A DNA stretch of 64,000 nt. It comes from Bugula neritina (lineage: Eukaryota > Animalia > Bryozoa). The stretch spans positions 18,382,259 through 18,446,258 of the forward strand of contig OZ037767.1 of the NCBI GenBank assembly GCA_964035545.1, written 5' to 3'. The stretch's first letter is position 1. Every line of letters starts with the position of its first letter. The translations under genes and the position numbers were made by a program. The notes below the pieces were generated by a model. The model was not told the origin of the DNA, searched no databases, and saw nothing but the letters and a program-made list of their open reading frames with translations. Shown here piece by piece: positions 1,311-26,524 of this stretch.

Positions 1311-3234
1311 CTAGCATGCACAGCTGACTACTGTCACGTTCACTTTGATTTATGGCTGCCAACTATACCAAAAGATTAAAGTAGTTTAGGCAGTTTATAT
1401 GAATTGTAACTCAAATTTTACGGTGGTTTGGCAGTTGCCCAGCTTACAGTTGTTCATAAAATGAAATAAGCTTCTACACTGTAAAATCCAGGCTTTTTTA
1501 ATTTTTCATCTGAAATTAAGGAGTAAAATCTTTGGTCTTTTAATTAATCTAGCAATTAAGTTGTAAGATGTTTAGCCCCATTAAATACTTCTAATAATTA
1601 ATGTTCTTTTCTAGCTATACAAAATTTACAACCAGAAACCTTCAACTGATTGCCATTGTTCGAATAGGACTTAAAAATTTTGTTAGTTTAGACTAAACTG
1701 GTGATTATTAAATATAAGAGATAAAATTTTGTTGAATTCAACTATTCAATGAGCCATCAAAGCAATATAATTTTAAATGAAGTTTTCATTAAAAATTCAA
1801 CTGACTTAATATACAGTGCAACCCTAACTGAATTTGTTAACAGGTTTCAACATAAAGAAATTTCATAGGATATTCGATCTATTCCATATGGCAACACAAT
1901 AAAAGCAGTACTGACTGAAGTTTTCCGGTAGAAAATTTCTACTGGAAAACTTCTACTAGAAATGTTTTGAAACTCATGCCATTCAACAAGGTGTAATAAT
2001 ATGAGATTAATGATTGAGAATAGTTCAAAACTTTTATCTAATTATCATTACTAAACATGAACCAATTAACAACCAAACTGACTTTGACCAATGAACAAGA
2101 AGCTACTGAGAACAAAAAGATTATTCTATTCTGGCCAGACATGATTTAAATGGAAGTTATATTAGAAAAAAGTGGAGAAGCATTTATATTTTGTTTTTCA
2201 ACAAATTAAAGGTAAAGGTAAAGAAAATGTGGTTATTGACATTTAAAAAGAAACTGTCAAAATAAAACCATGGGTCACTACTATAAAATTGAATTGAATT
2301 TATACTTGCATTATCTACATATGTATTTTACTAATGTACGCATGATATGCACCTTTGGTACTGACTTTAAACTAATATCCAACATGAATATTAGTTGAAT
2401 AATTTTGTATGACTGGATGAGTAAGATAAAGTTACGTTGACAACATATAACCTCAAGCAAGCATCAACACTTCAAATAAACAACATGATTTGCCATCATT
2501 CTTCCATTTCTAATGCTTTCAACCAATTTAAAGCAACTCCAAACAAATGTAAATACATAGTAATTGGTCCAACTACTTAAATGCTATCACTGTCTCTTAT
2601 ATTACTCTATACTTGGAAGAAATTTGAGCTGCACGCCATGATATATGTGAGAGGAAACAGGTTGTCACATGACTAGAACGTCTGCTTGAGACTAGGTCAC
2701 AGGTCACATGGTATTGTCTGAAGGAACTTTAGATCCTGTAGATAATAAATTGGTAATAAGCAAATTTACAAAGCAATTATAAACTGTAAAATATGTTTCT
2801 TTTAAATTTACCTTTCATTAAACATTGTATACAAAGTGCCAATATTGAGTGTCTAAAATGAGCTATTAACTCAAGTATCTAATCACATTCAACTTTTAAA
2901 AGCCTAGCTTTACTTCACATCATCAGAAAACAAGAAGGTTGCTCAACCTGCCCAGCCTATAGAGCTACATACATTCTAAAGACTGTAACATAAAGCAGCA
3001 TGTACACAGGCTGATTTTTTTTCAGCCGATTTTGTACTTGCCGATTTCGCTATTGCTGATTGAAAAATCAGCGATAAATCCAAGCTATTTCTATATCTAT
3101 TGTAGTGAGTCATGCAATGTACTAATATGAGAATCGTCCTCTCTCCGTTCTGGGAATACTAAGGCCCCTATGTAGTAACCAATTAGAAGAACCGGAAGAT
3201 ATGCTTCCGACTCATGTGACAGTTCCCGGGCAAT

Positions 3235-6200
3235 AGGCCATGTAAAACTCAGCCAATCAGCGAAGTGTACCAGGTCAATGTCTTACCATTGTAACTGATA
3301 TAAAATTCTGCAAGTTCAATTGCAAAATGCATGCTTCTAAAAGCTAGTTGTGCAACTTTTGTTTCATGCATTATTTAATTTCATATCTTAAATTGATGAC
3401 TCGTGAAATGATTTTTTAAAATGTCTAAATTAAGTGTTTATGAAATGCAATTAAAAATTGCTTGTCTAGAAAAATGACCTGGTACGCTTTTGCAACTTAA
3501 GGCCAATTATTACATAACTGCCAGCTTAGTAGTTATTTGTTGTTGCAGCTTGAATGGGTTATTGTTTAGCATTGGAAGCTTGCAGTAAACATCTGTGAAT
3601 TTGGTACATGACTTTGATTGGCTGGTTTTTGAATGGCCCTTTAATATATGCATCTGGATGGCTGGGTAGTGTAGACTCCGCCTACATCTAGCTAATGTAC
3701 AGTAGCCAATCCACAGTAGTATTACAAAATTTCTGTTTAACAAATGAAATGTTCTGGTCATTCGTTTTGTACTTTACAATAGTAAATATTCTATTCAACT
3801 AGAATTTTATTGTATGTAAGCCATGGGAACTACTAAGAGGTTAAATCAACCACCCATGCTGGTAATATTGTAGCACGCGGTAATAGCAAGTCCACACCAT
3901 ATAAATATACACATAAGCTATTATGTGCAGCTTATGAATGCTGAAATGACTCCATTTCTTACTTTCAATTTGAAAAAAATTGTATTACATATTCTGCCAC
4001 TTCTGCACCAGGAACTTGTTTTCCTTTTAAATTTTGAAAATAGTAGGCAGTTTCTGCAGCAGTCAACATCCACAATAAACAACGTAAGCTTTCAAATAAA
4101 CTATAAATATATGAAATATTAGTGTGGAAACAATGTAATTTATTCATTGCTATGATGAAAAATTACAAGAATATTATATAAAAGCTAGATATAGATTTCT
4201 AGTAAAATGGCACAGGTAAAAATAACACATTTTTACTTCAAATTCTAAATTTCATCAGTCACCAATGGTGGCTGTAGATTACAGAGAGCACAGCAAACTA
4301 TCATAATCTTGTCTAATAGAGGTGCCAACACCAAGTTCACACCTCCAGGACCATTTAAAATATTGAACTCCTTTATCCTTTTGATTGCTCTTTCGACATG
4401 GATTTGAAGGTTAGCAATCAACTTTGTTTGCAGTAACTGCATTTTAATCATTTGCAAATGGCCTCTTTTCCCAGGCGGTATGGCCAACTTGGCTCCAGCG
4501 CCTATAAGTTCTTTTTCAATAAGAAAGCCTCTATCTGCCATAACCACATCACCTGGGTTTATGAAGTCTAAGAACCCAGAGTCATTCACTACACACTTGT
4601 CTTAGGCTCTACCTCCCATTCCATGCGAAATAAAGCAGATAGTGCCCCTGGGTGTAATTGCAACCAAATAATTGATGGTGTTGGTCTTTTTATACTCACT
4701 CCATGTTAAAGATTGAGCCAGCTTTGATTGAGGCTTGCAAATGAATATTTCTGTGCAGTCTATAATGTACCTAATGTTAGCATATTGGCTTTTTAAGCTC
4801 AGAGGGATGTTCAGCTTCTCTCTTGTTGGAAAAACTATTAGATTGTTTAGTTCTCTTGCTAAAATATCTAATGTGTCTTTGAAGGTTTTGCTTGCTAGCA
4901 ATCTAGAGATATAAAAAAGGCCAGCAAGCATTTGAAACTGTAAACCCTGACGCAGCTTCATCAAAGCCAATAAAAGTTTATCTTGTCCTGTTAACTTTTT
5001 TCTGAGAGTGAGAACTTTCATCTTCGGACATATAAATCTAAATACAGTAAATAAAAAATGAAAATTAAATTATGATTCAAAATTATAATGTACAGTATGT
5101 GCTAAATAAATTTTGTGCTTAGTTTGTATTCATTCAGCAGTTTTTACCCTCTGGTAAGTAGCTTCAGTTATATTTTGCAAGAACTATGAAGTTCAAGAAC
5201 TGCTAGTTGAAGGCTTGACTCAATATATCACCATCCAAACAGAATGTAATGTGTGTCAACATGTGTTACGTAATACTGTAACAGTACATAATAAGCTAGC
5301 TGTCAGTACATGCTTTGAATGGAGTCATGAGTTTAAACAAATACTGTTGACAAACAATTATTACTTCATTTTATAATTATACTATAACTAATTCAAACCC
5401 ATATTATTTCTAGAATAGCATTTAATAATGTTTGTGAATAAGTGAAACTAGTAACAAGTGTAAACCATTTTAGTTTTAAACACTGAGTTAGTTTCAGCTA
5501 AAAATTAGATTAGGAGGCCACTTTTGATAAGCTTTAAAATAACCAAGGAAAATTTAAGTCAAAACAATTTACTTTTCCTGGAGAAAGTGAGTCAATTTGT
5601 CCACAAATAAAAGACTGCTGCTGGTTTAAATAAAACCCTAAACTAAATAAGTCAAAGCACACAGATGACCACTGTGGTATTTATGAATATCTTACATAAA
5701 ACAACATCTTTAATAAAAAATGTATGAATGATGCACTCATATTGTAACAAATTTAATTAAAATGACAGTTTTACTACACATCAAATTTAATCAATGTACA
5801 AATTTTAGCATAGTGAGACTTGCATTGTTTATTTGTAATAAACCGTAGTCTATCTTTGCAATAAGAAAATCATAATTTTTACCTTGCTAAAAAATAGTAT
5901 AGAGAACAAGTAGGTATTCCAGTATAGAATTTAGTTCGTTCATCTGTAGTGGTGAAAGTTTTAAAAACTTTTACTTTTTCAATAGTTGCTTTTTGTTTAA
6001 ACGTGGAACTTTTTGAGCTTTTTCTTCCAACTTTTGATTTTCGTCTATCAATAGAATGTGCAGATCTTTTTTTTTGAGTAGTTGATGATTCTGGTAACTC
6101 AGTTACTTCTGATGAAGTCTGACTATGAGGATGGCTGTCAGATGAGTTCTGTTGCTCTATATCAGCTGACTCTGTTGAAGACGTTTTCTGTTCGCTTCCT

Positions 6201-7400
6201 TCACATGTTTCATTAAAACCACTGTTTTTTGTGCGTCTTACATTATATGCATTAGTGCGTTGGTAACCCAAATGAAGGGTTGGAGTTGGATTTTGCTCAG
6301 TGGGCTGACCATCCTTATGATTATGATTATGATAGTCTGCTATGCTCTCTGTAATCTACAGCCACCATTGGTGACTGATGAAATTTAGAATTTGAAGTAA
6401 AAATGTGTTATTTTTACCTGTGTTATTTTATAGAAATCTATATCTAGCTTTTATATAATATTCTTGTAATTTTTTCATCATAGCAAGAACTAAATTACAT
6501 TGTTTCCACACTAATATTTCATATATTTATAGTTTATTTGAAAACTTACGTTGTTTATTGTGGATGCAGTTGACTGCTGCAGAAACTGACTACTATTTTC
6601 AAAATTTAAAAGAAAAACAAATTCCTGGTGCAGAAGTGGCAGAATATGTAAAACAATTTTTTCAAATTGAAAGTAAGAAATGGGGTCATTTCAGCATTCA
6701 TAAGCTGCACATAATAGCTTATGTGTATATTTATATGGTGTGGACTTGCTATTACTGTGAGCAACAATATTACCAGCATGAGTGGTTGATTTAACCTCTT
6801 AGTAGTTCCTATGACTTACATACAATAAAATTCTAGTTGAATAGAATATTTACTATTGTAAAGTACAAAACAAATGACCAGAATATTTCATTTGTTAAAC
6901 AGAAATTTTGTAATACTACTGTGGATTGGCTACTGTACATTAGCTAGATGTAGGCGGAGTCTACACTACCCAGCCATCCAGATGCATATACTAAAGGGCC
7001 ATTCAAAAACCAGCCAATCAAAGTCATGTACCAAATTCACAGATGTTTACTGCAAGCTTCCAATGCTAAACAATAACCCATTCAAGCTGCAACAACAAAT
7101 AACTACTAAGCTGGCAGTTATGTAATAATTGGCCTTAAGTTGCAAAAGTGTACCAGGTCATTTTTCTAGACATGCAATTTTTAATTGCATTTCATAAACA
7201 CTTAATTTAGACATTTTAAAAAATCATTTCACGAGTCATCAATTTAAGATATGAAATTAAATAATGCATGAAACAAAAGTTGCACAACTAGCTTTTAGAA
7301 GCATGCATTTTGCAATTGAACTTGCAGAATTTTATATCAGTTACAATGGTAAGACATTGACCTGGTACACTTCGCTGATTGGCTGAGTTTTACATGGTCT
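3235..7400 (-). mobile_element. ISL2EU/Harbinger-superfamily DNA transposon derivative with ~1.07-kb inverted arms (3235-~4308 and ~6325-7400)
   Basis: Termini AGGCCATGTAAAACTCAGCC / GGCTGAGTTTTACATGGTCT; AT TSD (3233-3234, 7401-7402) inferred from the intact LTR; DDE_Tnp_4-type transposase inside. An AT TSD with RR..YY ends is typical of ISL2EU. Confidence 0.88.
4245..6316 (-). pseudogene. ISL2EU-like transposase pseudogene (THAP tail + HTH + DDE), 2 exons (~6316-5883, 5037-4245), 5'-truncated, premature stop at 4602
   Basis: Motifs IIDCTEIF, VMADRGF and IHVERAIKRIKEFNIL; THAP C-terminal-like KDGQPTEQNPTPTLHLGY; GT-AG intron 5882-5038 joins in frame (FLAR/FICPKMK); GGRA*DK where GGRASDK is expected. 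Confidence 0.88.
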
Positions 7401-8368
7401 ATTAGCAATCATTACGTTGTTGTAAGCGAGGGCTTGAAGTAGAAACATGTGTTAGTAGTGACTGATGTTATAGTGTAATTTGATGTAATGTTTGTTTTGT
7501 ATTGCATTGTGGATAATAAAAGTAATTACTCGTCAGCTACCCTAGAAATTGCTAGTAGAATAGCCAACTAAATACGCAAGTAGAAAACTCACGCACAGTA
7601 ATTGCACAAATTACTACACTATAATTATCCATAAATTACTAAGCTACACTATTAACATCACTTACCAATTTTTTAAGCTATTTAGTTTAAAACTAAACGT
7701 TTAACTCAAGCATTATTGTTTATATAGTTAATGAAAACTCTAGAGTCTAGATCATGGCAAATCTGCTCTCCAAGAAAATATTTAAATTGTGAAATTGAGA
7801 TACCCGTACTAATACTGGTTACATGAATATAAAAACAACAACATATATACTAAAAGTTATAAATTATATTATACATGAGTAAAAGTTAAGAAAAATACTA
7901 ATTTTCTATTTTAAAAAACGAGCAATATTTAAGGAGTTTTCATGAATGTGAAACTAACTTTCTCAGAGTTACACAACAACCAATGCGTTATTACTACTAC
8001 TGCTATTGATAGTTATTTTTATAAATTGTATTTCATAAATGATGTGTCGCAGTGATAGCAATGTATTAATTACTTCCAGGTTGTATTTCAACAATGGCGT
8101 TAATTTCGCTCGCTGTTATGATTTTCTGTCACCTTTAGATTGGCTGGTTGAACAGAAAATCAGCCGATAAATTGAACATATTCAATTCTGAAAATCGCTT
8201 CAAAAATCAACCAAAAATCGGCTGATTTTTGAAAAATTGCTAACATTTTATCGGCCGATTTTCATGAAAAACCGGCCTGTGTACATGCAGCTTAAGAAAT
8301 CAGAATTTCATCAACAAGCATTATGAAGACACAATGTATACCAATGTGATGCATTACATTATAAAAAC

Positions 8369-11300
8369 TTACCATCCAGCAAGGTAATGTGGGGTAAGTG
8401 AGAACTTGATGACATAAGTAGGGTAGGCAGCGGCATCGTGGTACACAACAAATATGGTGGGAGAGTCAAGTTTATTAACAGTAGAGTGAAACCTCTCCGG
8501 AAGATTAGATCTATCAGTACTACTGTTACCAAGTTGGTACCTCCCTGTGGCCACTTGTGCTAGGATGATAGACTTGGTGGGCTCACTTTGTGAACTGTAT
8601 TGTATGGAATACTCTGACGTGGTGGAGAAATAACTCCCTTTACCATACACAGTCGCTAAAATAGTAGTCACCTAGTAGCTGTATACTAGTAGTAGTAACT
8701 GTATACTAGTAGTAGTAACTGTATAGTGGTAATAGTAACTGTATAGTAGTAATAGTTACTGTATACTAGTATCAGTAACTGTGTACTAGTAATAGTAACT
8801 GTATAGTAGTAATAGTAAACTCACCATTCTTGCCACAGTAGCTTCTATTGAACTCATACGTGCAGATTTTAGTCACACTGTCACAGTCTGTACCATGCCA
8901 CAACTCTCTCTCCACTGTCACCGGCCAGTCTGTTATCATATCATTCGCAATCTTCTCTTTCTGCGCTTCAAACTGCTGGTAAAGTCTGGCATTTTGAACT
9001 CGTAATATCTGTAGAATGTAGACATATATTAGATTACTATCTGTAGAATGTAGACATAGACTATATTACCATCAGTAGAATGTAGACATAGAGTATATTA
9101 CCATCAGTAGAATGTAGACATAGAGTATATTACTATCTGTAGAATGTAGACATATATTAGATTACTATCAGTAGAATGTAGACATATATTAGATTACTAT
9201 CAGTAGAATGGAGACATATATTAGATTACTATCAGTAGAATGTAGACATAGACTATATTACTATCTGTAGAATGTAGACATATATTATATAATAACACTT
9301 CTGTACATGGAATGAATGCCTAGCCAGTTTGATGCAATCCATACTTTTATCTTGTAGTAGACATGCCAAGTATCTCAGAATGTTACATTGAGAGACTGAC
9401 ATACTTAGACCGAATACCTCAGAAATGCTTAGTCTCCTGCTAAATGCACCAGATGTCACCAGGAACTTAGTCTTAACCCTCTGGTACTCAGAACTCTGGC
9501 TATAGAGCGCCACCATCAGTAGGCCAGTGTCCATATGCTCATCCTCCCAGTGTGAAGGTAATCCTAGGAATTAGAGTAACTCCTTATGATAGTCATGTGA
9601 CACCTGTCCGCTAATACTAAGCTGTTCAGAGTAGGAACTACTGGTTAAACAAGTATTCTGAAAAGACTAGAACTATAGACTATATACAGATGGAACACAG
9701 ACCTAAGGGCACAGCTATATACAGATGGAACACAGACCTAAGGGTACAGCTATATACAGGTGGAACACAGACCTAAGGGTACAGCTATATACAGATGGAA
9801 CACAGACCTAAGGGTACAGCTATATACAGATGGAATACAGACCTAAGGGTACAGCTGTATACAGATGGAACACAGACATAAGGGTACAGCTATATACAGA
9901 TGGAACACAGACCTAAGGGTACAGCTGTTGCTTTACGGTGTAGGATCTGCTGAATCTCATCCCTCATAGAGAAAGCATCTGCTTGCAGCCCTTCTATAAG
10001 TATGTCATTGTCCTCCAACTTAAATGTGACCTCCGTATTACATGACCTTGACATCTTGTAAATCCTGTTCACCTGAAGAAATTCAACTCTAAGTACTAGA
10101 CCACACCTCTAAGCCTAGGGCCACACTGTGCGTATTTTCGCATGCGAAAATTGAAACCACAGGTAGCAAAGGTGTCCACTGTAGCGTCAGTGATGCGTGA
10201 TAAATAAAGCTTTCATTTTTAAATCGCACTCGCTTTTAATAAAACGCAATTTACTGGAATATAGCACTAAAACAAAATTGGGCTCGCTAAATAACTACCA
10301 GCCAATTAGGTGACGACGACAGAGACGATTCGCACTTGCGTTCAGAATGCTGAGCGACAAGTGCGAATGATTTATCAACGCATACAGTGGACACCTTTGC
10401 TACTGGTGGTTTTAATTTTCGCATGCGAAAATACGCACAGTGTGGCCCTAGGCTAAGTACTAGACCACACCTCTAACTACTAGACCACACCTCTAAATAC
10501 TAGACCACACCTTCAAGTGCTAGACCACACAAAGTACATAATGCTAATTAACTAGTTGCATAGCAAAGTACATAATGCTAATTAACTAGTTATATAGCAA
10601 AGTACATAATGCTAATTAACTAGTTGTATAGCAAAGTACATAATGCTAATGAGGTAGTCATATAGCATAAATTCAGTGCTGACTGTCTATTTCTGAAAAT
10701 CTCTCAATTGAAAAAATGTTTGTAGAAATACATAAATGCTTCATTTGATAACATAAAAATGCTTGTTTAAAGTGTGAGAAGTACCTCAGCCTGAGTTAGC
10801 TCGGACACCAACTCTCTCAAGGGAGACAATTTCGTATCACATGTCACAAGACACTGATCTACATCACGGAGTAGTTTAACTGCCTTCTGCACGTCATCAT
10901 CTTTGAAACCAATCACCTCCACCCTGATTTCTCCAGTTGGCTCATGACTCGGGATAACAACTTTGGGTAAAACTTTTCTCGGCTGTTGAAGGATTGCAGA
11001 CGGCTGGGGTTGGTAACGAGCCAGCTCTTTCATGAATGCCTGGCATTTCATGTAGAATACATCAAATTCTTAGTAACTATTGTGCGTGTTGAGAAATATT
11101 GAAAGATTTTATTTTTATTTTAACTGGTGCCCAGCTCGAGGAATTTGATCCCCCAATTTGCAAGAAGACAAAGGTTCATTTAACCTTATAGCACCTACAG
11201 GCAACAGTGCTGTGGAAACTTAAGCGCACACACTTTAGTTCATGATTTAAAAAAAATAAGTGTTCAGTAATAAGAGACCTTTAAAAGAAAAACTAAGCCA

Positions 11301-14300
11301 CACTGCTTAGCTTGCTTTGACTTGGCATGTTGACCTGCAGATAAGACTGGGAATGGCAACAAACTCCTATCAATATCAAATTATCAACATAATAAGTTCA
11401 AGAGCTGAGACCGCGTACTCATGCACTTAAGTACCAACGTTACAGACACAGCTATACGAGTCAAGGAGTACCTGGTAAACAGCGCCATCTGTAGGATGAA
11501 TAACAAACTTCACTCGCTTATCAGTGCTGAATCTGTGATACGTGTTTAGGCAGGTCAGGACAGTTTCAATCATGGTAGATGCCACTAAATCTGGTGGGTA
11601 CTTCAAGTTTCCTGTCCCAATGGCTGGATAGCTGACCACCTCGGAGTCTTTTAGACAGAAGTAAGATTTCTCAACAAGATCTCTCAAAACTGAAGCCTGA
11701 AACACCATTAAATCATTGCATTTCCATGACTGCGTATTATGCGAATGAATGCCTTTACCGTTCAATTGTGGGTTGTGGTTTGCATCAACTTATAGTTGTG
11801 ATTTCATTCAATGTAACTATTTCCATTAGCCAAATGAAAAAATATATTCGCATAATGCGATAATGGAAACGCAGTGCATGATAGTGATTGTGAAGAGAGT
11901 TAAACTACGGAGGTAATGCAAAAGCCAAAGGAGATACGACTAATAACATTCTGATTAAACCATTCTAGCATTGAGGAATAATTCAAGAAATCATTTATGC
12001 AAAGAATACAATTGTCTAAAGGTCTATGTTATCAACACTTTTTTTACAAGCAATTACCCTTTCATTTAGAGTAGACATATTCCATTCTGGGGTGTTATCA
12101 GAGTGATAAATGGACAGATTAGAACCAGACTTGGTTTGAACACACTGATGGCCACTCACGATTGTAGCTCCACATGCTGTTTCCAGTGCAGCTTTGATGG
12201 CGCCCTGACTACTAACAACTGCACCAGTCTACAAAATGAGCTTTAATGTCTATTAATTAAGAAACTATAGATAGAAGATAGAATATACTGTTATAGACTC
12301 CATGAAATAAAAGGTAGAGAAGAGTAGTATGTAATACTATGAGCTAAAATGCCGAGTACAGTAATTCAACAACATAAATAAAAACAAGTAATATTTCAAA
12401 ATAGGCAGATAACATCTAGTACTTGTGATTGGTAGAGATAGACAACATAAGGCTAGACTGTTGACAGTGAAACATGTCACACCTGAACACTGGAAATATC
12501 CCCTTCAACAACTTCTACCATAGCAAGAATCTCAGGTGCAATTGTTTCAGGTGTAACGGGGCGTGTGTTTAGCACAACTTTAGCTGGCGAAATATCAGTA
12601 TTCCCTGTATCTTGAACAAAGATGGAGGCAGCTCCCACAATAGCTGAGACAGCAACAGCACCAGATATAGCGCTTGCTGATTTTGTAAGTGAATCTTTAT
12701 TGAAAAAACTTCTGAAAACTGAAAAGAGTGATGCAATTTTTGAGGGCATGCAAGAGGTGCTTGTTTTACCATCTGTTGATAAAGTGCCAGTAGTAGCTGG
12801 TTTTGAAAGTTGCTGGGTAACCTTTGGAAACCTTTCTAACTTTGAACGGCGCCTACTTGAATGAGAGAAGCTAGAAAAAACAGGACTACCCTTAGATACC
12901 TGCAACAATACATTGAACAGATGTTCAATTTCGAGTAATCTATCTTTGCCAGTTTGAGACTTGAGCCAATGAGCGATACCAGGCTTTGAGCAAGCAATAG
13001 TTGCAGTAACTTTGTTCAATAGAAAATTGCTAAACTTATCAGCAAATTCTTCTAGAGACTCCACGGAATCGGATTCTATTTTCAGTTTCTCGGAGGTGAT
13101 AAGATCAGCAAAATCAACTTTGACTCCATTAACAGAGCATATTTCTGTAACAAGATCTTGACTTTTCGAAACAAGTGAAGCCAAACTACCAGGAATTTCA
13201 AGGCTCTTTTTAACCGGGAGAAAAGAAGCAAAACATTCACTCAAGACTTTGTCCGCAGAAGACAAACCTTTAGTTGAACGAATAGCAAACTTGATCTTTT
13301 TCTCAGATTCATCAAAATGAGTGACTAAAGTTTTACACTGATACTCAACAGCCAGACTACGAAACCTGTCTTGCCACACATACTCCGATGCAAGGAAATG
13401 TTTTTCGGTTAGAGACAATGATCGACCTTGTGGGTAATCACCTTCAGTTATCAAACCAAGTATTACATTTGAAGCCTTTTTAGCAGTTTGCAAGCGGTTG
13501 CTGCACACAGAGAGTGAATTAGCACTTACATGCCAACCGGCAAACAAGTTATACTGCTTAAATTCGTGAATAATTTCTGGTGCTTCAATACTTTTCATCA
13601 CAACATAGCAAACATTTGTCAAAGGCACTGTCTGAACCACAAAGGCACTGATGAGCTTTGTTAGACTCTCAACCACCTTAAGAACATTTTCTCTGTGACC
13701 TTGCACTTGTAAACATGATTCACTAAAAAAGACTTTAATAGTTACATTACAATCAGTTTCATAAGCTTTGACTGCATGCTTTTGACTGTAGATATATCTC
13801 AGCTGTTCCATGCTGAACTGTCTTTTTTCTCGGTGAAACACAAATGGGTCAAGACGAGAGAGGTCGAGATTCAATCTTTCTAACTGACTTGGATAAATCC
13901 ACCCAAAATTTTTAGGGTTGCTGGGCCGAGTTTTGATATTTTTTTCTGATGTTTTATGACTAGAGGTATGGTTTTCTGAGCTACCCATTTGTTGCAAAGA
14001 ATGGGAAAGCTCATTATTGCTTTCATTTGGCAAACAGCTTGAGTTTAAATGTTTCATATGTTCTCCCAAATTAGACTGCTTCAAGCTTGAATTTGAAAAA
14101 ATTAAGGTTTTGTTCAGCATAACATCCTCCTCCTCATCAAAATCAGAAGCTGCATCTCGTAGTTCTTTGTCATTTGTGTTAGCGCTTTTCTTTCCATGGT
14201 GACTAGTTAAGTTCCTTGATCTGCCATAAATACTAGAAAATTTAGTATGTTTTGTTTTCCGGACTCGAACTAGGTTTGTATTTTTTACGCAAACTTTAGA

Positions 14301-15168
14301 AGGGTTATGAGCACGAGAGCCTTTAGTTGAAAGTCTCCTACGACTTGGAATATGGTTAACTTTATCATCTGCTAAATTCAGGTCTTGGTGGTGACCACCA
14401 GCGAATTCACCTTGAGATTCCCCAGAGTTCTCTTGGTCATCATGACAAAATGTAGATAGATGCCTGACAGAGTCATCTGAAAGTCTAGGAGAGTGAGTTA
14501 AATGGCGTTCCAAATTTGTGTCATCTAAATCATCAATTGGCAAATTTGGTGAGGGTAATGTTGGTGGGTTCTGTTGAAAAGATTTGGCGCTTTTTGAAGT
14601 TTTCGTTTTAAATGCAACTTGTATTTGGCACCCGTGTACTAATGTTCCATCAAAGATTTCAATGCCCTACAATGAATATGTAAGTTTAGGTAAGCCTTTT
14701 AATGTTTCTACAATGAATAAACACTGAAACTAAAACAAGAATGCTACAGGTTAATATAAACAACACTACAAACCTTCTCGGCGTGTTCTTGACTACAGCA
14801 AAACACAAGAGCAGCGGTAGCATTTAGTCTGCGTATATTTTCTACGCAAATTTCTCTTTCAAGTATTTCTTTCAGTTCATTATCTTTAAGGCCTTGTTTT
14901 ATTCCACTTATGTATAAACTCTTCAAATACAAAAGCATCAGTATAAAGTACAATTTTACAACTACTAATATCCTATTAACTATATCCTATATGAAGCATG
15001 GAAATAGCAAAAAATGCACAATAAAGAAAAGCAATTATAATACTATAAAATTTAGGGGTGTCAGGCTACACAGTTGAACTTACTTATATCCATTCCAACA
15101 TTAGGCAATTAAAAATGTTTATCATTAGCACATAGCCTAACAGAACTTACATGCTTGTCTTCTGCCAT
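8369..15168 (-). CDS. PARP9/14/15-like macrodomain mono-ADP-ribosyltransferase (~1260 aa; RRM - low complexity - putative KH-like region - macro - ART). Exons: 15168-15151, 14920-14774, 14666-12483, 12228-12058, 11696-11472, 11039-10785, 10072-9913, 9563-9418, 9008-8825, 8655-8369
   Basis: All junctions GT-AG and phase compatible. ART motifs LPSHW, ILRVQN, LWHGT, FNRSYCGKNATVYGKGSYF, IFVVY and AYPTYVI; macro motifs VVEGDIS and YPAIGTGNLKYP; RNP2-like SLYISGI. The KH-like assignment is inferred from PARP14 architecture. Confidence 0.9.
8672..8818. repeat. 20-bp minisatellite (TAGTAGTAGTAACTGTATAC) filling the last PARP intron
   Basis: ~7 tandem copies between exon ends 8655 and 8825. Confidence 0.9.
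9005..9285. repeat. ~32-bp minisatellite whose unit contains the PARP splice acceptor
   Basis: Unit ATCTGTAGAATGTAGACATATATTAGATTACT, ~9 copies; minus strand reads TTCTACAG/AT. Confidence 0.92.
9680..9926. repeat. 35-bp minisatellite whose unit contains a PARP exon end and splice donor
   Basis: Unit ACAGATGGAACACAGACCTAAGGGTACAGCTATAT, 7 copies; minus strand reads GCTGTACCCTTAG/GTCTGT. Confidence 0.93.
10113..10453. mobile_element. Harbinger/Tourist-like MITE (341 bp) inserted in a 20-bp minisatellite in a PARP intron
   Basis: ~70-bp TIRs starting GCCTAGGGCCACACTGTGCG; TAA TSD at 10110-10112 and 10454-10456; flanking repeat CTCTAAGTACTAGACCACAC resumes after the insertion. Confidence 0.93.
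10531..10668. repeat. ~34-bp minisatellite (AGCAAAGTACATAATGCTAATTAACTAGTTGTAT) x4
   Basis: Direct tandem copies. Confidence 0.88.
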
Positions 15169-16269
15169 ACTAGCAGATATTGAAATTCATCAAAGTACTG
15201 GCTGATCCACCTACAAAATATTTTTTGTAAAATGTAAACTTGTTATTTAAAAAAAACAGTATACTTCATTATAATAGGCACGCTAGATTGATAACCTGCT
15301 ACAGCGTACAAAATAGCTGGTATGTCTTAGGTACCAACAAATCAACACCAGAGCAGTCAATATAACCGACTGATCATTATAAAAGGACAACAGCCATCAG
15401 TGTTTACTAAGTGCGCAATAAATGCATAAGTTATTTATTGATATACACTTACAGTAGATCTGGTAGGCTCGGTTAGGTTGATACAGCATAGTCATATATT
15501 TAATATAACTTACATATATTAGATTATTTTTGTTGAAGTGTAGAAAAACATAAAAACTAACAACTTTATGTTTGGTTTTAATTAGCATTCGATTGTAAAA
15601 AGTAGATATGATATATTAAGTTTTACTTCCATTTTTTTGGACCAAGTGTAAGCATTATGATTATTATTTATCATTATTAACATCGTCATTCACTCATTGT
15701 AATACTAATAGTAATCCTTATACTTATAGACTATCACTATAGTTATACTAACGTCTAATGTTATACAGTACGAGTATGAGTACAAGTTGAAGTATTAGTA
15801 ATACTAATACTAATACTTAATCTGAATCTAATGGCTATAGCAATACTCACTAATACCTCATACTTCTTACTGATATTGGGGTACGTGTTTCAGTATTACA
15901 CTCACAGTCCCACTGACACTCGCTTACACTGTGACTGTCACCGTGACACTCAGGCTCAGCACTGACAGTGACTCAGACTGAGTCAGCGTGATAATCAATT
16001 TCATAATATTGTAATAGTGATTCACTTATAAATTCCAAAACTAAATGAAAAAGCTCTAATATACTACTACTACTACTGCCTGAAGACTTTGAAAAGTTAT
16101 TGCTGATTGAAACTCCTCCAAGTTTTAACAGAAAACGTAACGCTTGGCACCTAAAGCACTCCTTTCTGCGAAACTACTTTTATCCTTGCAGAACAATATC
16201 AGAAAGTAATAATTACTGTTGATCTTTGAAGCTCTCTCGTAGAAAATGTCATTTTGAAACCTAGGCTAA

Positions 16270-16280
16270 GGGGAGTCCCC
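16270..16280. promoter_or_regulatory. Candidate NF-kappaB/Rel site GGGGAGTCCCC upstream of the PARP gene
   Basis: Matches GGGRNNYYCC on both strands; near-palindromic in AT-rich context, ~1.1 kb upstream of the PARP ATG. Confidence 0.4.
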
Positions 16281-16408
16281 GTCAAAAATATCTTTCGGCA
16301 TGGTGGAGATAATTCTCTATACGACATTAGGGTTCGAAGTTATTATTATATTATACATATACAAAGTATAATGTTGAATTTACATCACACCATGTCATGA
16401 ATGCTTTC

Positions 16409-16574
16409 CTAGTAAACACGAGGTTGTGGGTTCGAGCCTGGACATAGGCCATTGGTGATGTTAGGAAGAGCATCCAGTCATAATTGCTCCTGTGCCTCAT
16501 TTAAATAAGTCCTTAGCCTGCTTTAATCACATTTTAGTCACACCCGGATAGCGACTATAAACTTGCGTGAGTGC
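16409..16574 (+). mobile_element. 5'-truncated tRNA-derived SINE with 15-bp TSD
   Basis: B box GGTTCGAGCC; TSD GTCATGAATGCTTTC at 16394-16408 and 16575-16589; homologous to 35750-35915. Confidence 0.85.
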
Positions 16575-16713
16575 GTCATGAATGCTTTCAGTATAGGAAA
16601 TTAAAAGTAACAGCGATTGGATGGAAAAATTATCATGCTCAGTAAACTTGCTTAATTGGATATTGTAGTAACTTTGTGGGTTGAATGAAACTTAAGTGCT
16701 GAACATATCTCTT

Positions 16714-16964
16714 TGTAAGAAAGAACAATATGGATGATATTCTTCAGTAGTAGCAATCTTTATTGTAGCGTAATAGAGTGGTCTTCAACAGGCGAGCTCC
16801 AGTGGTAGACTGAACTACGCTAGAAACTCGCCTGCTTTTATACACAAGAATTCACACTCTAGAATGTTCCAACAGACAAAAGAAAGTTAAGCTTGACAGA
16901 AACAAAAGAAAAGTAGACAAAGAAGAATGAATAATTCAATAAGCCAAGAGTTTAGCTATAATAA
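16714..16964 (-). mobile_element. Possible fragment of an unrelated LTR abutting the Gypsy element
   Basis: TGT end, minus-strand AATAAA (~16760) and TATAAAA (~16840) in LTR-like spacing; no TSD found. Confidence 0.3.
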
Positions 16965-17604
16965 TGTAGTAATTCGTGCAATTACTGTGCGTGAGTTTTC
17001 TACTTGCGTATTTAGTTGGCTATTCTACTAGCAATTACTAGGGTAGCTGTCGAGTAATTACGTTTATTATCCACGATACAATACAAAACAAACATTACAT
17101 CAAATTACACTATAACATCAGTCACTACTAACACATGTTTCTACTTCAAGCCCTAGCTTACAACAACGTGATCATTGTCAATTGCCCGGGAATTGTCACA
17201 TGAGTCGGAAGCATATCTTCCGGTGCTGCTGATTGGTTACTACATAGGGCCTCAGAATTCCCAGAACGGAGAGAGGACGATTCTTATATTAGTACATTGC
17301 ATGACTCACTAAACCCCCCCTCCCCCAGCAGGAAGTCCTACTTTCTGATAACACAAAAAAACCACATACAAAGAAAAACAATACAATAATCCAAAAAAAG
17401 AATACATAATCAAACCCACAAAAAGGAAAAAGAGAAATAGTTGAGTACACAAGCATTTATAGAAGTAAACAGGGTGGTCGAACACACACAGCTAGTCAGC
17501 TATAGAGAGAGAGGGTGCTTACCAGCACGCGGGCCAATGTCGGGGAGCTCGTCACTTCACAGACGAGGATACATTCCACCGAAAGGTGCCTACTCCAGGC
17601 ATAC

Positions 17605-18662
17605 TCATTGGGTGGGCTCTGACTCTTGTAGTGAGCGTGAACTGTGTCGAGCCTGTCGGGCACGTAGCCTCCGCTTCAGTCGCCCCACTGAGTCCTTCAG
17701 CTAGTATAGGCCTGTCGTCGTATCCAGCAGGTCAGGGGCAAGTTGTGTAAACTCGGCTTGTAGTTTTACAAGCCGCTCTTCTACACTAGCCAATCGGCTA
17801 GGTCCTAGTGAGGTTGTAGCAGTCTCTGATATTGGGGGTATCGTCGTTCCTTCTGATTTGGGGGTGTTGCTAGGGTTGACGGGGGCAGTGGACGGGGCCT
17901 GAACCATAGGAGACTTATGGCGGGCGAATAACAGTAGTACTTGGAACCCTGACGCTAGTGCGGCCAGGGTGATAGTGTTCTTGATGACCGGCTTGATGGT
18001 GTCTAGGTACTGGGAGAAACTGTCCTCATCTATGATATGGCCTTCTCCGGCGAAGCAGCTCAATTTATGGACGATCACAGGGTACGGGTATACATCGTGG
18101 AACCCGCATGGGCAGAAATGTAGTAGAAAGTGTGCGTCTACATGCAGACGCAAGGAGCGGTGTGACGGGCACTCCTTGAAACAGACCTGGCGGGCCCGGT
18201 GGGGTCCGCTTGGTCTCCAGGCTTCCTCAATCCTCCTTTCCGTCGTGGGTGACACCCATCGGTGTCGTCGACGAAGCACCACGGGTAGGCCATTTTCCAT
18301 CACAGGTTCTTCCTCCATAGGTATAGGGGTTGGCTGGTCCTGTGACCGGGAGGTGGTCACTCGAGTGTGATCTGAAAGAGTAGCAGTGTTAAAAATTATA
18401 CACTGAGGTACCGCCGGCGTGTACAGCCTGACAGGTACTCTGTTCAGTTACACTCGTGAGATTCAGGCTAATGAATAGTTGATCGAGAACACACTCGCTA
18501 TGGCAGATTATTTAAAATCAAAATCGACGTGTGTTCCCACCACTGTGTTTCATTATCGAATCTCCAGCTCGCTAACTGGTGTAGCTAGAGCTGACTGATG
18601 TAGTCTAGTTCTCGTACCAAAAACATAATTAACTCACCCTTCGATTCAGAATAGTAAGACAT
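17605..18662 (-). CDS. Spliced accessory ORF3 of the Gypsy element: C2H2-like + C2HC zinc fingers and C-terminal coiled coil; exons 18662-18638 and 18371-17701 (probably to 17605 ancestrally)
   Basis: AAAATG start; MSYYSESK then G/GTGAGT donor; CTCTTTCAG/AT acceptor; phase-1 join in frame with ORF 17701..18360. (R)x2C-x12-Hx3H and CxC-x12-Hx3C spacing; heptad pattern continues 31 codons past the TAG at 17703-17701. Confidence 0.75.
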
Positions 18663-18685
18663 TTTGGAATGAGAGCGGTAAATGA

Positions 18686-19534
18686 TTAATGTTTAGTGGC
18701 ACGTCTACTCTTGACTGCATCAACGTAGGAAAAGACCGGGCAGCGTGGTTGTGAAGCGTGACTAGGGCTTTTTACTTCTAGCGGATGAATCTCGTGTGTG
18801 ATTCCGCCGAGGCAAAAGTTGAGATTTTCGTGGTGTTCACAACTCCTACGTCTCTTTGCCTGTTTTCCCATGCGAGACCTCGCTAAACCTTCATAACTGC
18901 TGCTTGTAACGCGGTCACGTACGAAGTCTCCGAGATACGCTGGGGGTTGCCTAGTGTGTGGTCCTGGAGGCGTCGTCACTGTGGGAGGCGGTGTGCTCAC
19001 CCGTGGATTTTTATGTCTCACGGGTGGTTTTTCCAGCCTGTTTGTGACGGTTTTTCCTACGTTGGTATTCCGTATGGAGCCCCTCCCACGAGGGGGTTTT
19101 TGCACTTCCGGACCCGTTTCCGGTTCCGGAAGTGGTGGTGGTGGCAGGCTTGACGTTGGGGGCGGTGGGCGCACTTCCAAGGACGGAAGTGGCCTTTCTT
19201 GCTTCGCCAAGTCTTCCTGAGGAGTCATGGGGGTGTTTCCGGCCAGGACGACAGTCTCCGCTTGCCAAGACCTTCTCGCACAATGCGTCTGCTGCCCCGC
19301 TTCACCAGGGAGACGGCTATGCTTGTTGGTCTGGCAGACTTCGCACCGTCTCACTCTGCGCCGGATGTCCCGCTGCATCTTGGGCCAGTACCACCGGAGT
19401 TGTAGCTTGGTGACCACCCCCTGGACTCCTTCGTGAGTCTGCTCGTGGGTGTCCCGTATCAACTCCCGGTGGATGGCAGCTGGGCAGACAATCCTCTTCC
19501 TGGCTGGTTGTCTGCTGTTGGCGGCCAAAGTCAT
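18686..19534 (-). pseudogene. Integrase remnant (HHCC zinc-binding domain fused to pol C-terminal tail; DDE core deleted)
   Basis: HEQTH...WYWPKMQRDIRRRVRRCEVCQ aligns with the integrase at 23895..24752, then jumps to a Pro-rich tail with PPAYLGDF. Confidence 0.85.
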
Positions 19535-19777
19535 GGTCAGCAGACCATCTGGCCCGACCCGCAGGGAGTTCCAACGTTGACAGTACAGCCGTAACTCGGA
19601 ACATTCCTGTCACCGTTGTCTACCACTGGGTCGTCGCCCTTTCTGTTTCGCTCGGTACACGTCGACTACCACCCCAGGAAGGCTTTCCTGGAGTTTCGGC
19701 AGCTCCCTAACATTACCAGCCCATACAGGTTTGGCGCGGAGGCTCTGGACGGCCTCCGGGGGCATGTCAGCCCTCTG

Positions 19778-21157
19778 TTAGAGTTGGCCCGGGTTCCGTG
19801 TTGGCAACGGGGACCGCGGGGGAACCCTGCTCTTCTTCTTCGGGCCCAACCTCTTCGTGAGCTGCCGAGTAGGGGCGATCTCCGCCGCCCGTGGTACTTC
19901 ACGACGGCCCGCTCTATTTAGGCGAGCGTCATGGTCTGTGTGGCGGAGCGCCTCACTGTACCTGTGTGGCAACATAGCCATAGCATGGCGCTTTCCGTTG
20001 CCTGTGTAGCCACGCGTCCCTGAAGGATGGGAGGCGTGGGTTGGGACGGTCCTCCGCCCTTGAGACGGGCTCTGTTGAGGACCTTCTGTCGTAGCTCCCA
20101 ACGACGGCCCAATGGTTTCCTCCTGGACAGGATGGAAGCGTCCCAGCATGGACCTGGGTGGTAGGTTTACCGTCTGTGAGGAGGGGTTGACGCACTGCAC
20201 TGAGATCTCTCCTTGTCGCGTAAGCCGGCTAAAGCTATGGGCAAGTTGGATTCTTGAGTGCGTACTTTTGACAACTCCCAACCTAGAGGTCTGGCCACCG
20301 TCTACTTTGCAGCGGACGGTAACCCGGGAGTGGCCTGGTATCGTACAGCTCCGTACTACCTGCACTCCTCCCGCTAGAGGACGACCAAACTTATCGACAC
20401 AGGCGAGCTCTCTGTCGCCCATGATCATCGCAGATTTACTGAAATCGATGCGACATCCGTGTCGTTGTAAGAATGGCATCCTGAGGATAGCATCCTCGTT
20501 GAGCTGTTCGACGATAAACGTCTCCCGGATGGCCCGGTTACGGATGTAACCAGTCAGCTCAATAATGCCGTAGAAGGAAATGCACGACCCGTCTGCCAGG
20601 GTGCCACGATCCTCCTCATACGGTGCCAGACAGTCCCTGACCTTAGCGCTGAGAGTGTCAAAGAACTGACGGCTAAGGAGGTTGGTGGTGCAGCCCGAGT
20701 CCAGAAGGAAGTTGGCAGGCTTGCCAGTTTGCTTTCCTGGCAGGAAGTAGCTACTTCCGTGTGGCTGCATCTGTGTGTGCCGTGGTTGCACCTCCCTCGC
20801 TGTGGGTCGAGGGGTCCACGGTTGGCGACGACTATTGACCAGCTGCCGAGGTTGGGGCGGTACGCCTTGCGGCGCCTGTACCGTTTCCCTCGCAGGCTCT
20901 GAGGTCAACCGTCCGTCGGATCCGTGTTGGAGTGGCATAGAGGACCCAGGTGGCGAGTGGCTTGAACAGCCTACTTGCCGTGGGGGTCGCCACTTCACAG
21001 CATCTCCGCGTGGCGCCCAGCGGGGCGGCAGACGTGTTGTCTTCCCTGGGTGATTTACCGGCGGCCCGCAGGAGGTGGGAACATCTGCGGGCCGTGGTAG
21101 TTTAACCCTTGTTGGAGTTGAGGCCAGTTTTTCTGGAAATATCCTGGCCTCCCACAT
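19778..21157 (-). CDS. Gypsy aspartic protease region followed by a degenerate RT N-terminus
   Basis: FLLDSGCTTNLLS active site and DAILRMPFL; then a decayed RT start (PTRQLTKRLGPKK) with no YxDD. Confidence 0.8.
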   Translation of the reverse strand: MWEARIFPEKLASTPTRVKLPRPADVPTSCGPPVNHPGKTTRLPPRWAPRGDAVKWRPPRQVGCSSHSPPGSSMPLQHGSDGRLTSEPARETVQAPQGVPPQPRQLVNSRRQPWTPRPTAREVQPRHTQMQPHGSSYFLPGKQTGKPANFLLDSGCTTNLLSRQFFDTLSAKVRDCLAPYEEDRGTLADGSCISFYGIIELTGYIRNRAIRETFIVEQLNEDAILRMPFLQRHGCRIDFSKSAMIMGDRELACVDKFGRPLAGGVQVVRSCTIPGHSRVTVRCKVDGGQTSRLGVVKSTHSRIQLAHSFSRLTRQGEISVQCVNPSSQTVNLPPRSMLGRFHPVQEETIGPSLGATTEGPQQSPSQGRRTVPTHASHPSGTRGYTGNGKRHAMAMLPHRYSEALRHTDHDARLNRAGRREVPRAAEIAPTRQLTKRLGPKKKSRVPPRSPLPTRNPGQL

Positions 21158-21159
21158 CC

Positions 21160-22017
21160 CTAGCAGAAGTTATGCCCCGTGCCTGGTGATTGTACCTGCG
21201 GCCCGCAAGGCTCACGGGCGGTATCTACCTGACTTGGGGGAGCTAATGTGGCGACCAGTTTGGCTAGCATGTCAGTTATCTGTGCGACTTTCGATGCTAC
21301 CGACATCTGGGTCACATTAGCTACCGCGGAGGGTTCCGCATTTGGTTCAGTATGAGCAGTAGTGTGCTCCGTGGCCACCTGGCGGGAGGCCACGCGGTTG
21401 CGATGCATCTGAGTCGCCAAGAGGTAGGCTTCTCCCACCACGAGTGCATCCTCGACCGTGGCGACTCCCCTCGCTTGGAACTGATGGTGGAGCCCCAAGT
21501 CGTTGATGGACTGCACGAAGGCATCATAAGTATACCCCTCACGGTTCGCTTGAGGCAGATCGCGGAACGCGATCTGCGCCAGCGTCATTACCGTGGTAGC
21601 GTGCTCCTGCAGCGGCGTGTGAGGATCACGCCGCAGCTTTTGTAGGCGGTCTCGCGCATCTATGGCGGAGATACCAAAACGGGCCCGCAGAGAAGCAAAG
21701 ATCCCGTCTATGTCAGGTCCCACTTCGTATGGCTTAGCCTTGTCTGTCAGCGCTATCCTGAGTTTGAGCAACGCCACCCTTAGTGGCCACCGTGCAACTT
21801 TCATCACATCTTGGAATTCCTGGATAAATTGCTCTACGGCTTCCTCGCCTGTGAAGGTGGGCGCCTTCAGCCGGTATCTATCCTCACCAGGCTCTCTAGG
21901 AATTCTTACTTCTTCTAACACTACTGGTTCTACAGGTATATCAACATTATCTTCCTCACCTTCATTTAGTGGAATGGGTAGCTCCGTACCGTCTTCTGCC
22001 ATGACTGTTATACGCAA
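21160..22017 (-). CDS. gag: Gypsy Gag
   Basis: Follows the PBS; motifs LKAPTFTG..VEQFIQEF and FASLRARFG; first ATG near 22002. Confidence 0.85.
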   Translation of the reverse strand: MRITVMAEDGTELPIPLNEGEEDNVDIPVEPVVLEEVRIPREPGEDRYRLKAPTFTGEEAVEQFIQEFQDVMKVARWPLRVALLKLRIALTDKAKPYEVGPDIDGIFASLRARFGISAIDARDRLQKLRRDPHTPLQEHATTVMTLAQIAFRDLPQANREGYTYDAFVQSINDLGLHHQFQARGVATVEDALVVGEAYLLATQMHRNRVASRQVATEHTTAHTEPNAEPSAVANVTQMSVASKVAQITDMLAKLVATLAPPSQVDTAREPCGPQVQSPGTGHNFC

Positions 22018-22869
22018 GATCCCACTGCTGCCACCACTGTAGTAATTCGTGCAACTACTATGCGTGAGTTTTCTATTTGCGTATACTTAGTTGGCTATTC
22101 TACTAGCAATTACTAGGGTAGCTGTCGAGTAATTACGTTTATTATCCACAATACAATACAAAACAAACATTACATCAAATTACACTATAACATCAGTCAC
22201 TACTAACACATGATTCTATTTCAAGCCCTCGCTTACAACAACGTGATCATTGTCAATTGCCCGGGAATTGTCACATGAGTCGGAAGCATATCTTTCGGTG
22301 CTGATGATTGGTTACTACATAGGGGCTTCAGAATTCCCAGAACGGAGAGAGGACGATTCTTATATTAGTACATTGCATGACTCACTACACCAACAACCTT
22401 TTGAAGGCATTCATAAAAGCTACACAAAAGATCCTTTGTGGTCCAAGCCGAAAATCGGATCACAAATTTCCAGTATCAGTATTAATGCAAAATGATAAAA
22501 TAGCAAAAAGAAAATAACTCTGGAATGCGTATTTCATGAAAATTACATTATACTGAAAGCTTTAACAACAATCACAATAATAAGGCATTAGAAAGCTAGC
22601 CCAACTTGGCTACAATTACAGCATTCAAAACGATACGAAACAGTAATTATAATACTGACGCAAGCAGTTACTTCAGAATTAATAGAGGATGAATTCCATT
22701 ACATTCTCCCCCATTGAAAAGCATCCCCTTTTCCATAACAGAAACAAAGTGTTTGTACAACACAGGTCAAAAATAAAACACAACAGTGGAAAATATGTGG
22801 TTAACAGAAAAGTATTATGATTAATCACGCATGTCACAATAAACAATCGTAGTAGTACCCACAATATAT

Positions 22870-26181: not shown

Positions 26182-26524
26182 TGTTGTGTCTTAGCACAAT
26201 TATTAGCGTGGATTGCCTGCGTATTTAGTGTCAATTTAACTAGCAATTACTAATATAGCTTGCGTAGATAACCTTTATTTAGCTCGATAAACATATTTAT
26301 AACATCACATCAAAATACCACAATACATCAATCAATTACAAACACATGTTACTACTACGAGTCCTTGCTCACAACAACACATGGTTTCTGCTGACTAACC
26401 CGGGAACAGTCACTTGACAGGAAGCTCGCCTTCCGGTCCCTCTGATTGGATAGTAAAACATAGTTATAAGTATTCCCATACAAGAGGGGACGACCCCATT
26501 ATTATACTACGTAATCCCATTACA
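26182..26524 (-). mobile_element. Solo LTR (343 bp) of a sister Gypsy family
   Basis: TGTTG...TTACA termini; CAAG TSD at 26178-26181 and 26525-26528; collinear blocks shared with LTR 22038-22389 (CTAGCAATTACTA, AACACATG, CCCGGGAA, CTGATTGG). Confidence 0.88.

Follow-up and report, generated by a model that had tools for sequence, protein, structure and literature searches.

The window, a 64,000-nucleotide stretch of Bugula neritina DNA, contains on its minus strand a Ty3/Gypsy LTR-retrotransposon with paired LTRs, a primer-binding site and a polypurine tract. The primer-binding site and the polypurine tract were assigned by reading the sequence. An additional gene, called here the accessory gene, lies at the env position. 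From 5' to 3', the element comprises:

22037..22389, minus strand: 5' LTR, 353 nt, TG...CA
22017..22036, minus strand: primer-binding site, directly after the LTR and presumably of the tRNA-Leu type
21160..22002, minus strand: gag ORF, labelled from its position and a knuckle remnant, stopping just before the decayed zinc knuckle
21960..22002, minus strand: leader exon of gag, 43 nt, up to donor D1 (AAG/GTGAGG), in phase with the exon-2 acceptor
20630..20737, minus strand: aspartyl protease motif (Pfam Asp_protease_2, E=0.0015, below the curated cut-off)
18686..19609, minus strand: integrase remnant, with an H2C2 zinc-binding domain at 19483-19316 (Pfam Integrase_H2C2, E=1.3e-14) and a C-terminal tail ending at a stop at 18688-18686
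18638..18662, minus strand: exon 1 of the accessory gene, 25 nt, with its ATG at 18662 in a CAAAATG context, ending at donor D2; an alternative start
18372..18637, minus strand: intron, 266 nt, GT-AG, ending CTCTTTCAG at 18372
17605..18371, minus strand: exon 2, the main coding exon of the accessory gene, 767 nt
17314..17326, minus strand: polypurine tract
16965..17313, minus strand: 3' LTR

A preliminary description of this DNA had proposed a two-exon sense gene between the pol stop and the polypurine tract, and its ATG, 25-nt exon 1, donor, 266-nt intron and in-frame join were all recovered when we re-read the sequence. From the pol-tail stop to the acceptor, the sole GT[AG]AG is donor D2 (G/GTGAGT at 18638/18637), which joins exon 1 to exon 2 in frame; the GC content of the intron is 42%, versus 55% for exon 2. 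The frame of exon 1 differs from that of the pol tail, and the accessory gene is out of phase with the latter. The spliced frame (exon 1 plus exon 2) holds 263 codons with one premature stop at 17703-17701, followed by 31 codons. An exon-2 ORF of 219 aa had been announced: the ORF exists, but 222 whole codons precede the stop and the figure of 219 counts from a GTG. Translated with X at the premature stop, exon 2 yields 254 residues, which begin with an acidic linker, continue through two zinc motifs and a Pro/Thr linker, and finish in a heptad helix whose end is Arg-rich. Much further upstream, donor D1 (21960/21959), located 43 nt into gag, is the first of 10 GT[AG]AG sites after the primer-binding site and the only AG/GT[AG]AG upstream of the acceptor. 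A donor-like site and a strong acceptor-like site were also seen in the 3' untranslated region of the accessory gene, at 17522-17500.

Evidence for splicing came from a natural relative, P0010, in which 14 gag-like residues run straight into the first residue of exon 2, matching the predicted donor and acceptor. The acceptor had been predicted beforehand, whereas donor D1 was recognised only after P0010 was seen. P0010 is the single gag-donor product among the close relatives (1/140), and an exon-1-like peptide was found at the start of none of these 140 proteins. Expression from a spliced subgenomic RNA, a hallmark of Env, is thus represented by the P0010 join, in one record only. Across the acceptor, 36 of 40 aligned relatives read S/L and then D/G, a pattern that is compatible with a conserved YAG acceptor but does not prove it.

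Contigs of run X1 bear on the second donor. A joint at 18371/18638 skips exactly the 266-nt intron, with CT..AC ends on the plus strand and a depth of 843. It comes from one contig, aligned at 80% likeness, whose short side has 29 letters, under the tool's mark of 31: a 117-nt contig of the same depth (843) places 88 letters on exon 2 with 12 differences, and its remaining 29 letters account for the far side. Above-chance support for the exon-1 donor D2 comes down to this one sub-threshold contig joint. A gag-to-exon-2 joint did not occur among the 15 run X1 joints listed (of 57). Contigs that retain the intron reach much greater depths over its 5' half (7,000-22,000 summed, a figure that does not count copies). 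Run X1 appears to be a DNA run, to judge by piece depths that recur near 50 and 100; if so, some copies have lost the intron through reverse transcription of spliced RNA. The intron is thus not always kept: one contig, with its 29-letter short side, lacks it exactly. Finally, none of the 24 variants listed in 441 nt falls on the ATG, the GT or the AG, which chance also allows.

All together, these observations make it very probable that the accessory gene is expressed by splicing. Expression is likely to follow, at least in part, the manner of env, from the donor at the start of gag, because P0010 has exactly the gag-to-exon-2 join. Exon 1 had been taken as the start of the gene without notice of the gag donor; its layout stands, but since the gene is likely expressed from that donor, exon 1 would be an alternative start at best. 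Its ATG might be reached from an internal promoter, for example.

The product of exon 2 is predicted to contain the following parts:

17914..18288, minus strand: compact two-zinc domain, residues 28-152 (AlphaFold pLDDT 89.3, pTM 0.84)
18192-18130, minus strand: C2H2 finger (finger 1), its first ligand lost in this copy
18114-18055, minus strand: second zinc site, C-x-C-x12-H-x3-C, after a 5-residue linker
17806..17913, minus strand: variable Pro/Thr linker of low pLDDT and low identity
17635..17793, minus strand: leucine heptad helix with an Arg-rich end (8 K/R in 16 residues), interrupted by the stop at 17703-17701

In the AlphaFold model, residues 24-152 form a single compact alpha/beta domain, after which come a flexible linker and long helices. 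The protein features initially reported were largely borne out: both zinc motifs have the spacing given for them, with the first ligand missing in this copy, and the heptad coiled-coil pattern is evident from residue 193, with Leu, Val or Phe at 12 of 14 a/d positions and 31 codons following the stop. The reported lack of a transmembrane segment was also confirmed, as the best 19-residue hydropathy (1.63) lies within the predicted globular domain and values above 1.6 occur in only 2 of 37 close relatives. The accessory protein contains no N-glycosylation sequon. We therefore rejected the possibility that it is an Env, which the missing membrane segment and sequon both contradict.

The family profile of finger 1 matches solved C2H2 fingers (SALL3, E=9.5e-6), and the classical motif C-x2-C-x3-F-x5-L-x2-H-x3-H, typical of a beta-beta-alpha finger, is present in 32/37 close and 57/62 distant relatives. 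The second site gave no profile match; with finger 1 alone matched, the protein does not contain a tandem C2H2 array with canonical linkers. In the distant relatives, positions 2, 3 and 5 of the finger-1 helix are Lys or Arg in 73-85% of proteins, and positions -1 and 6 are mostly Ser/Thr and Val/Ile/Leu, respectively, unlike the usual base-reading residues. A Pfam scan of 100 family members returned only weak C2H2 matches and no enzyme or chromatin-reader domain. Fold searches at E<=0.001 retrieved no match for the whole model in the PDB and a viral library, and none for the two-zinc domain in the PDB. With VIA-align, the whole model matched generic coiled coils (best Z 5.7, rmsd 1.9, 63 aligned) and the domain reached at best Z 3.8 (rmsd 8.1, 95 aligned), the Kaiso fingers scoring Z 3.2 (rmsd 3.9, 55 aligned); these searches establish neither a new nor a known fold. 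A predicted two-copy complex of the C-terminal helix scored 0.12, which carries no verdict.

A protein search found 129 relatives, all unnamed, with 46-81% identity among the 120 listed, and a profile search found 123 cluster representatives, many of them distant. We aligned 37 close and 62 distant proteins, the latter with 14-37% identity. In the 37 close relatives, zinc-ligand cells hold the commonest residue in 285 of 295 cases, compared with fractions of 0.85 in the helix, 0.76 in the remainder of the domain and 0.53 in the linker; both zinc motifs are intact in 30 of the 37. Mean pairwise identity within the close family is 0.35 in the Pro/Thr linker versus 0.67 and 0.78 in the flanking domains, the heptad helix being the most strongly conserved (0.78). 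Even in the distant relatives, seven of the eight ligands are kept in 58-62 of 62 proteins, and the eighth aligns as Cys in 40. Moreover, 8 of 30 long-tailed distant proteins end in a strong heptad stretch, versus 0.3 expected from shuffles by an ad hoc score. The CGC and TAG codons had been suspected to be defects of this copy, and the family agrees: 36/37 close relatives keep the first ligand and 33/37 have a residue at the stop column.

A more distant protein, P0280, combines RNase H, integrase and, from residue 1078, the two-zinc domain in one 1460-aa ORF, with about 25% identity. This fusion means that a deeply separated lineage holds the domain at the same position as the accessory gene; the element context of the domain is known for this copy, P0010 and the P0280/P0241 cluster only. 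Close relatives of 446-2000 aa were searched for and none was found, which is a weak test. At the DNA level, pattern searches for relatives returned 344 metagenome-contig stretches, 36 and 18 viral-contig stretches and 31 genome-contig stretches, none of which tblastn confirmed. Scanning DNA for a pattern yielded 45 loci, of which three had short tblastn matches confined to the motif; by blastn, no locus matched the window. Conservation of the ORF exceeds what chance would give, as judged from these sequences, and we have little doubt that the gene is real and selected. With 129 close relatives and a distant family that includes the element-borne P0280, it is not the one-off capture of a host exon, an outcome against which the preliminary description had staked its reading.

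Related domains also occur in cellular genes. Among 30 clusters that were looked up, all organism-named members are bryozoan genes (Watersipora, Bugula), which by itself points to a likely bryozoan host, and annotated genes of both genera carry the two-zinc domain, some in two copies. For this reason an old exchange of the domain between element and host is conceivable and may have taken place; the domain tree, built by a quick method from 103 of 212 domains with most close relatives left out, does not give its direction. P0201, P0277 and P0281 (Watersipora XP_067944745.1; Bugula KAF6040922.1 and KAF6040923.1) have a short N-terminal segment in common, the two Bugula genes have adjacent locus tags, and the three are possibly a domesticated or donor gene family.

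The copy in the window is decayed. Its LTRs are 96.3% identical over 350 nt, with 10 mismatches and two gap openings, and its flanks match at 2 of 4 positions of a target-site duplication. The suspicion that the copy is inactivated was justified, as gag stops at the knuckle and the accessory gene lacks its first zinc ligand and has a premature stop. The upstream region had been called pol: protease and the integrase zinc-binding domain are indeed there, but Pfam found no RT, RNase H or integrase core (rve) in the three element ORFs scanned, and this pol is a remnant. The gag ORF had no significant Pfam match. Protease comes before integrase in this copy, as does RNase H in P0280 and the neighbouring element; residues 139-313 of P0280 align to 19759-19220. 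Two overlapping diverged contigs span 19673-20186, between protease and integrase, which suggests a non-autonomous sub-family in which the RT-less layout is shared and the accessory gene retained.

The element is nested in the 3' LTR (16663-16964 and 22390-22701) of a second Gypsy element, whose RNase H-integrase region lies at about 25500-23600 and in which no remnant of the accessory gene was detected. Run X1 contigs join 16962 to 22392, the empty site of the nested element. Upstream of the second element, an LTR-like sequence at 26218-26455 is 72% identical to the LTR of the accessory-gene element. A DNA transposon, bearing inverted repeats of 747 nt and part of a DDE_Tnp_4 transposase at 4602-5069, interrupts a solo LTR of the latter's family (3101-7618; 91-93% identical, 4-bp target duplication). 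A 729-codon host exon (12477-14666, minus strand), which has no significant Pfam match and which we take to be PARP14-like, lies directly downstream of the nested elements on the same strand. A host C2H2 zinc-finger exon at 59667-60584 (minus strand), flanked by 20-21-nt minisatellites, is unrelated to the accessory gene beyond the finger motif.

What might the accessory protein do? Its features suggest that it is probably a nuclear, nucleic-acid-binding regulator of the element; we infer splicing as the expression route, nuclear location, self-association and nucleic-acid binding. More tentatively, and by analogy to CERV of the Cer1 element and to HIV Rev, we propose that it binds the unspliced RNA of the element and aids its nuclear export. 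The LTR transcript would be spliced by default, joining either the gag donor (43 nt in) or the closer one at 18637 with the acceptor at 18372 and so producing the accessory mRNA. The Arg-rich tail would then direct the protein into the nucleus, the heptad helix would mediate its self-association and the basic face of finger 1 would grip nucleic acid, so that unspliced gag-pol RNA could escape splicing or retention and be packaged. Such a function would explain why most copies keep a removable intron. We favour it because the strong donor near the beginning of gag poses the very problem that such proteins solve, because most copies retain the removable intron, because the finger seems better suited to gripping the backbone than to reading bases, and because CERV, the one characterised Gypsy protein with a similar layout, does that job. 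On the other hand, most C2H2 fingers bind DNA, and the bryozoan genes with the same domain hint at a general nuclear role.

No response element could be assigned to the intron. Its fold reaches z -2.88 against shuffles, but the background of the element is z -0.98 +/- 1.31 (89 windows), and 120-nt windows inside the intron, at z +0.3 to -1.2, disfavour it as well; an Rfam search for an RNA element gave one chance match only. Three of the five most stably folding of the 89 element windows (z -3.5 to -4.5) fall at 18970-19209, in the integrase tail upstream of the accessory gene, which is a candidate RNA element or a composition effect. In a larger scenario, which we regard as doubtful, bryozoan Gypsy elements would have evolved a Rev of their own, in the form of an ancient unnamed two-zinc family that sits at the env position, governs how element RNA is spliced and exported, and is independent of retroviral Rev and nematode CERV. 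The domain would also have passed between elements and bryozoan host genes, the host possibly holding domesticated copies that regulate or restrict the same elements.

Several of the same features would suit a dimeric DNA-binding LTR transactivator, similar to Tas or Tax, with one finger per chain, pairing through the heptad helix and the acidic N-terminal linker (5 D/E vs 2 K/R) as activation region: finger 1 is a canonical match to DNA-binding fingers, the leucine heptads come with a basic tract and cellular relatives exist in bryozoans. However, helix positions -1, 3 and 6 are mostly Ser, Ala and Leu in the close relatives, which are poor base readers, and the single canonical finger is predicted to be packed into a larger domain; we consider a transactivator unlikely, though the next most probable role after export. 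That the domain occurs in annotated Bugula and Watersipora genes, in some as two copies, could also point to an anti-silencing or chromatin factor, or to a decoy of a host protein with the same domain, in a family that is deeply diverged and in which 6 of 34 members weakly match the SUZ12 zinc domain (best E=0.057). Those matches are not significant, however, the 100 members scanned contain no enzyme or chromatin-reader domain and the strongest close-family conservation resides in the heptad helix (0.78); we consider this role quite unlikely.

A basic zinc domain with a coiled coil is also what a particle component could look like, either structural or chaperone (an extra nucleocapsid-like protein or an L1-ORF1p-like RNA chaperone) or a guide for integration, and the P0280 fusion, in frame with integrase, could travel in the particle. 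In this copy, the gene has a frame of its own that is not in phase with the pol tail, and gag carries its own knuckle remnant; we consider such a component improbable. Last, the gene could be a captured host exon, a passive passenger that does nothing for the element. One may cite for this the cellular relatives and the ligands lost in some close relatives (30/37 nonetheless having both motifs intact), but we consider it very unlikely: conservation follows the domains, the linker changes length in frame, two element-borne lineages that separated deeply have the domain in one and the same position, and P0010 uses the in-phase gag donor. The pattern of ligand and domain conservation would also imply a dN/dS well below 1 between active lineages.

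How LTR elements without Rev export their intron-containing genomic RNA is largely an open question, and in the literature searched CERV was the only Gypsy-encoded solution. The accessory gene adds a second candidate that seems unrelated to the first. Its splice sites are defined, one domain is modelled with confidence, and some 200 related proteins as well as cellular relatives are known, so that the question becomes testable in a third animal lineage. It also indicates that a soluble zinc protein, probably reached through splicing in the manner of env, can occupy the env slot of Gypsy elements. In the literature searched, with Repbase, Dfam and subscription journals outside its scope, we found no description of the two-zinc family; the supplements of PMC13524379 may list these elements.

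Like the additional ORFs of plant LTR-retrotransposons (PMC7264820) and sORF1/sORF2 of MDG1 (PMC11952523), the accessory gene is a family-wide extra ORF, of a kind mostly of unknown function. The plant sense ORFs are described as env-like and the word "zinc" does not occur in the text (PMC7264820), and sORF2 of MDG1 is a short membrane protein encoded upstream of gag (PMC11952523); the accessory protein differs from both. With the Env of Gypsy errantiviruses it shares the position after pol and the likely subgenomic splicing (PMC13524379), but it has neither the transmembrane anchor nor the glycosylated ectodomain of an Env. The bryozoan env-bearing elements are reported in that study to contain an HSV-gB-type Env in the order gag-env-pol, and the terms "zinc finger", "splice" and "accessory" do not occur there (PMC13524379).

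Like Rev and Rex, the accessory protein is small, encoded by a spliced RNA, provided with an Arg-rich tract and predicted to self-associate (for Rev, see PMC10309623). A Rev/Rex-type response element was not identified in the intron and element fold windows or with Rfam. The accessory protein has a zinc domain, and Rev is not known to have one. CERV is encoded at the env position of Cer1, a Gypsy element of C. elegans, by a spliced mRNA that shares gag-frame exons; it has a Cys loop and a leucine zipper and is required for export of the genomic RNA (PMC10309623). That study describes a 517-aa protein from five exons that has a C4 loop, a G-protein-like domain and a zipper in common with Gag, and reports no homology outside nematodes (PMC10309623). 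Judged by sequence, the architecture of the accessory protein differs from the H-M-G domains of CERV, as do its size (about 270 aa), its C2H2 and C2HC sites, its C-terminal zipper and its two donors. Like CERV, however, it is encoded by an ORF at the env position and, in one natural record (P0010), by a spliced mRNA that starts in the gag frame, and by analogy it is likely to work as CERV does.
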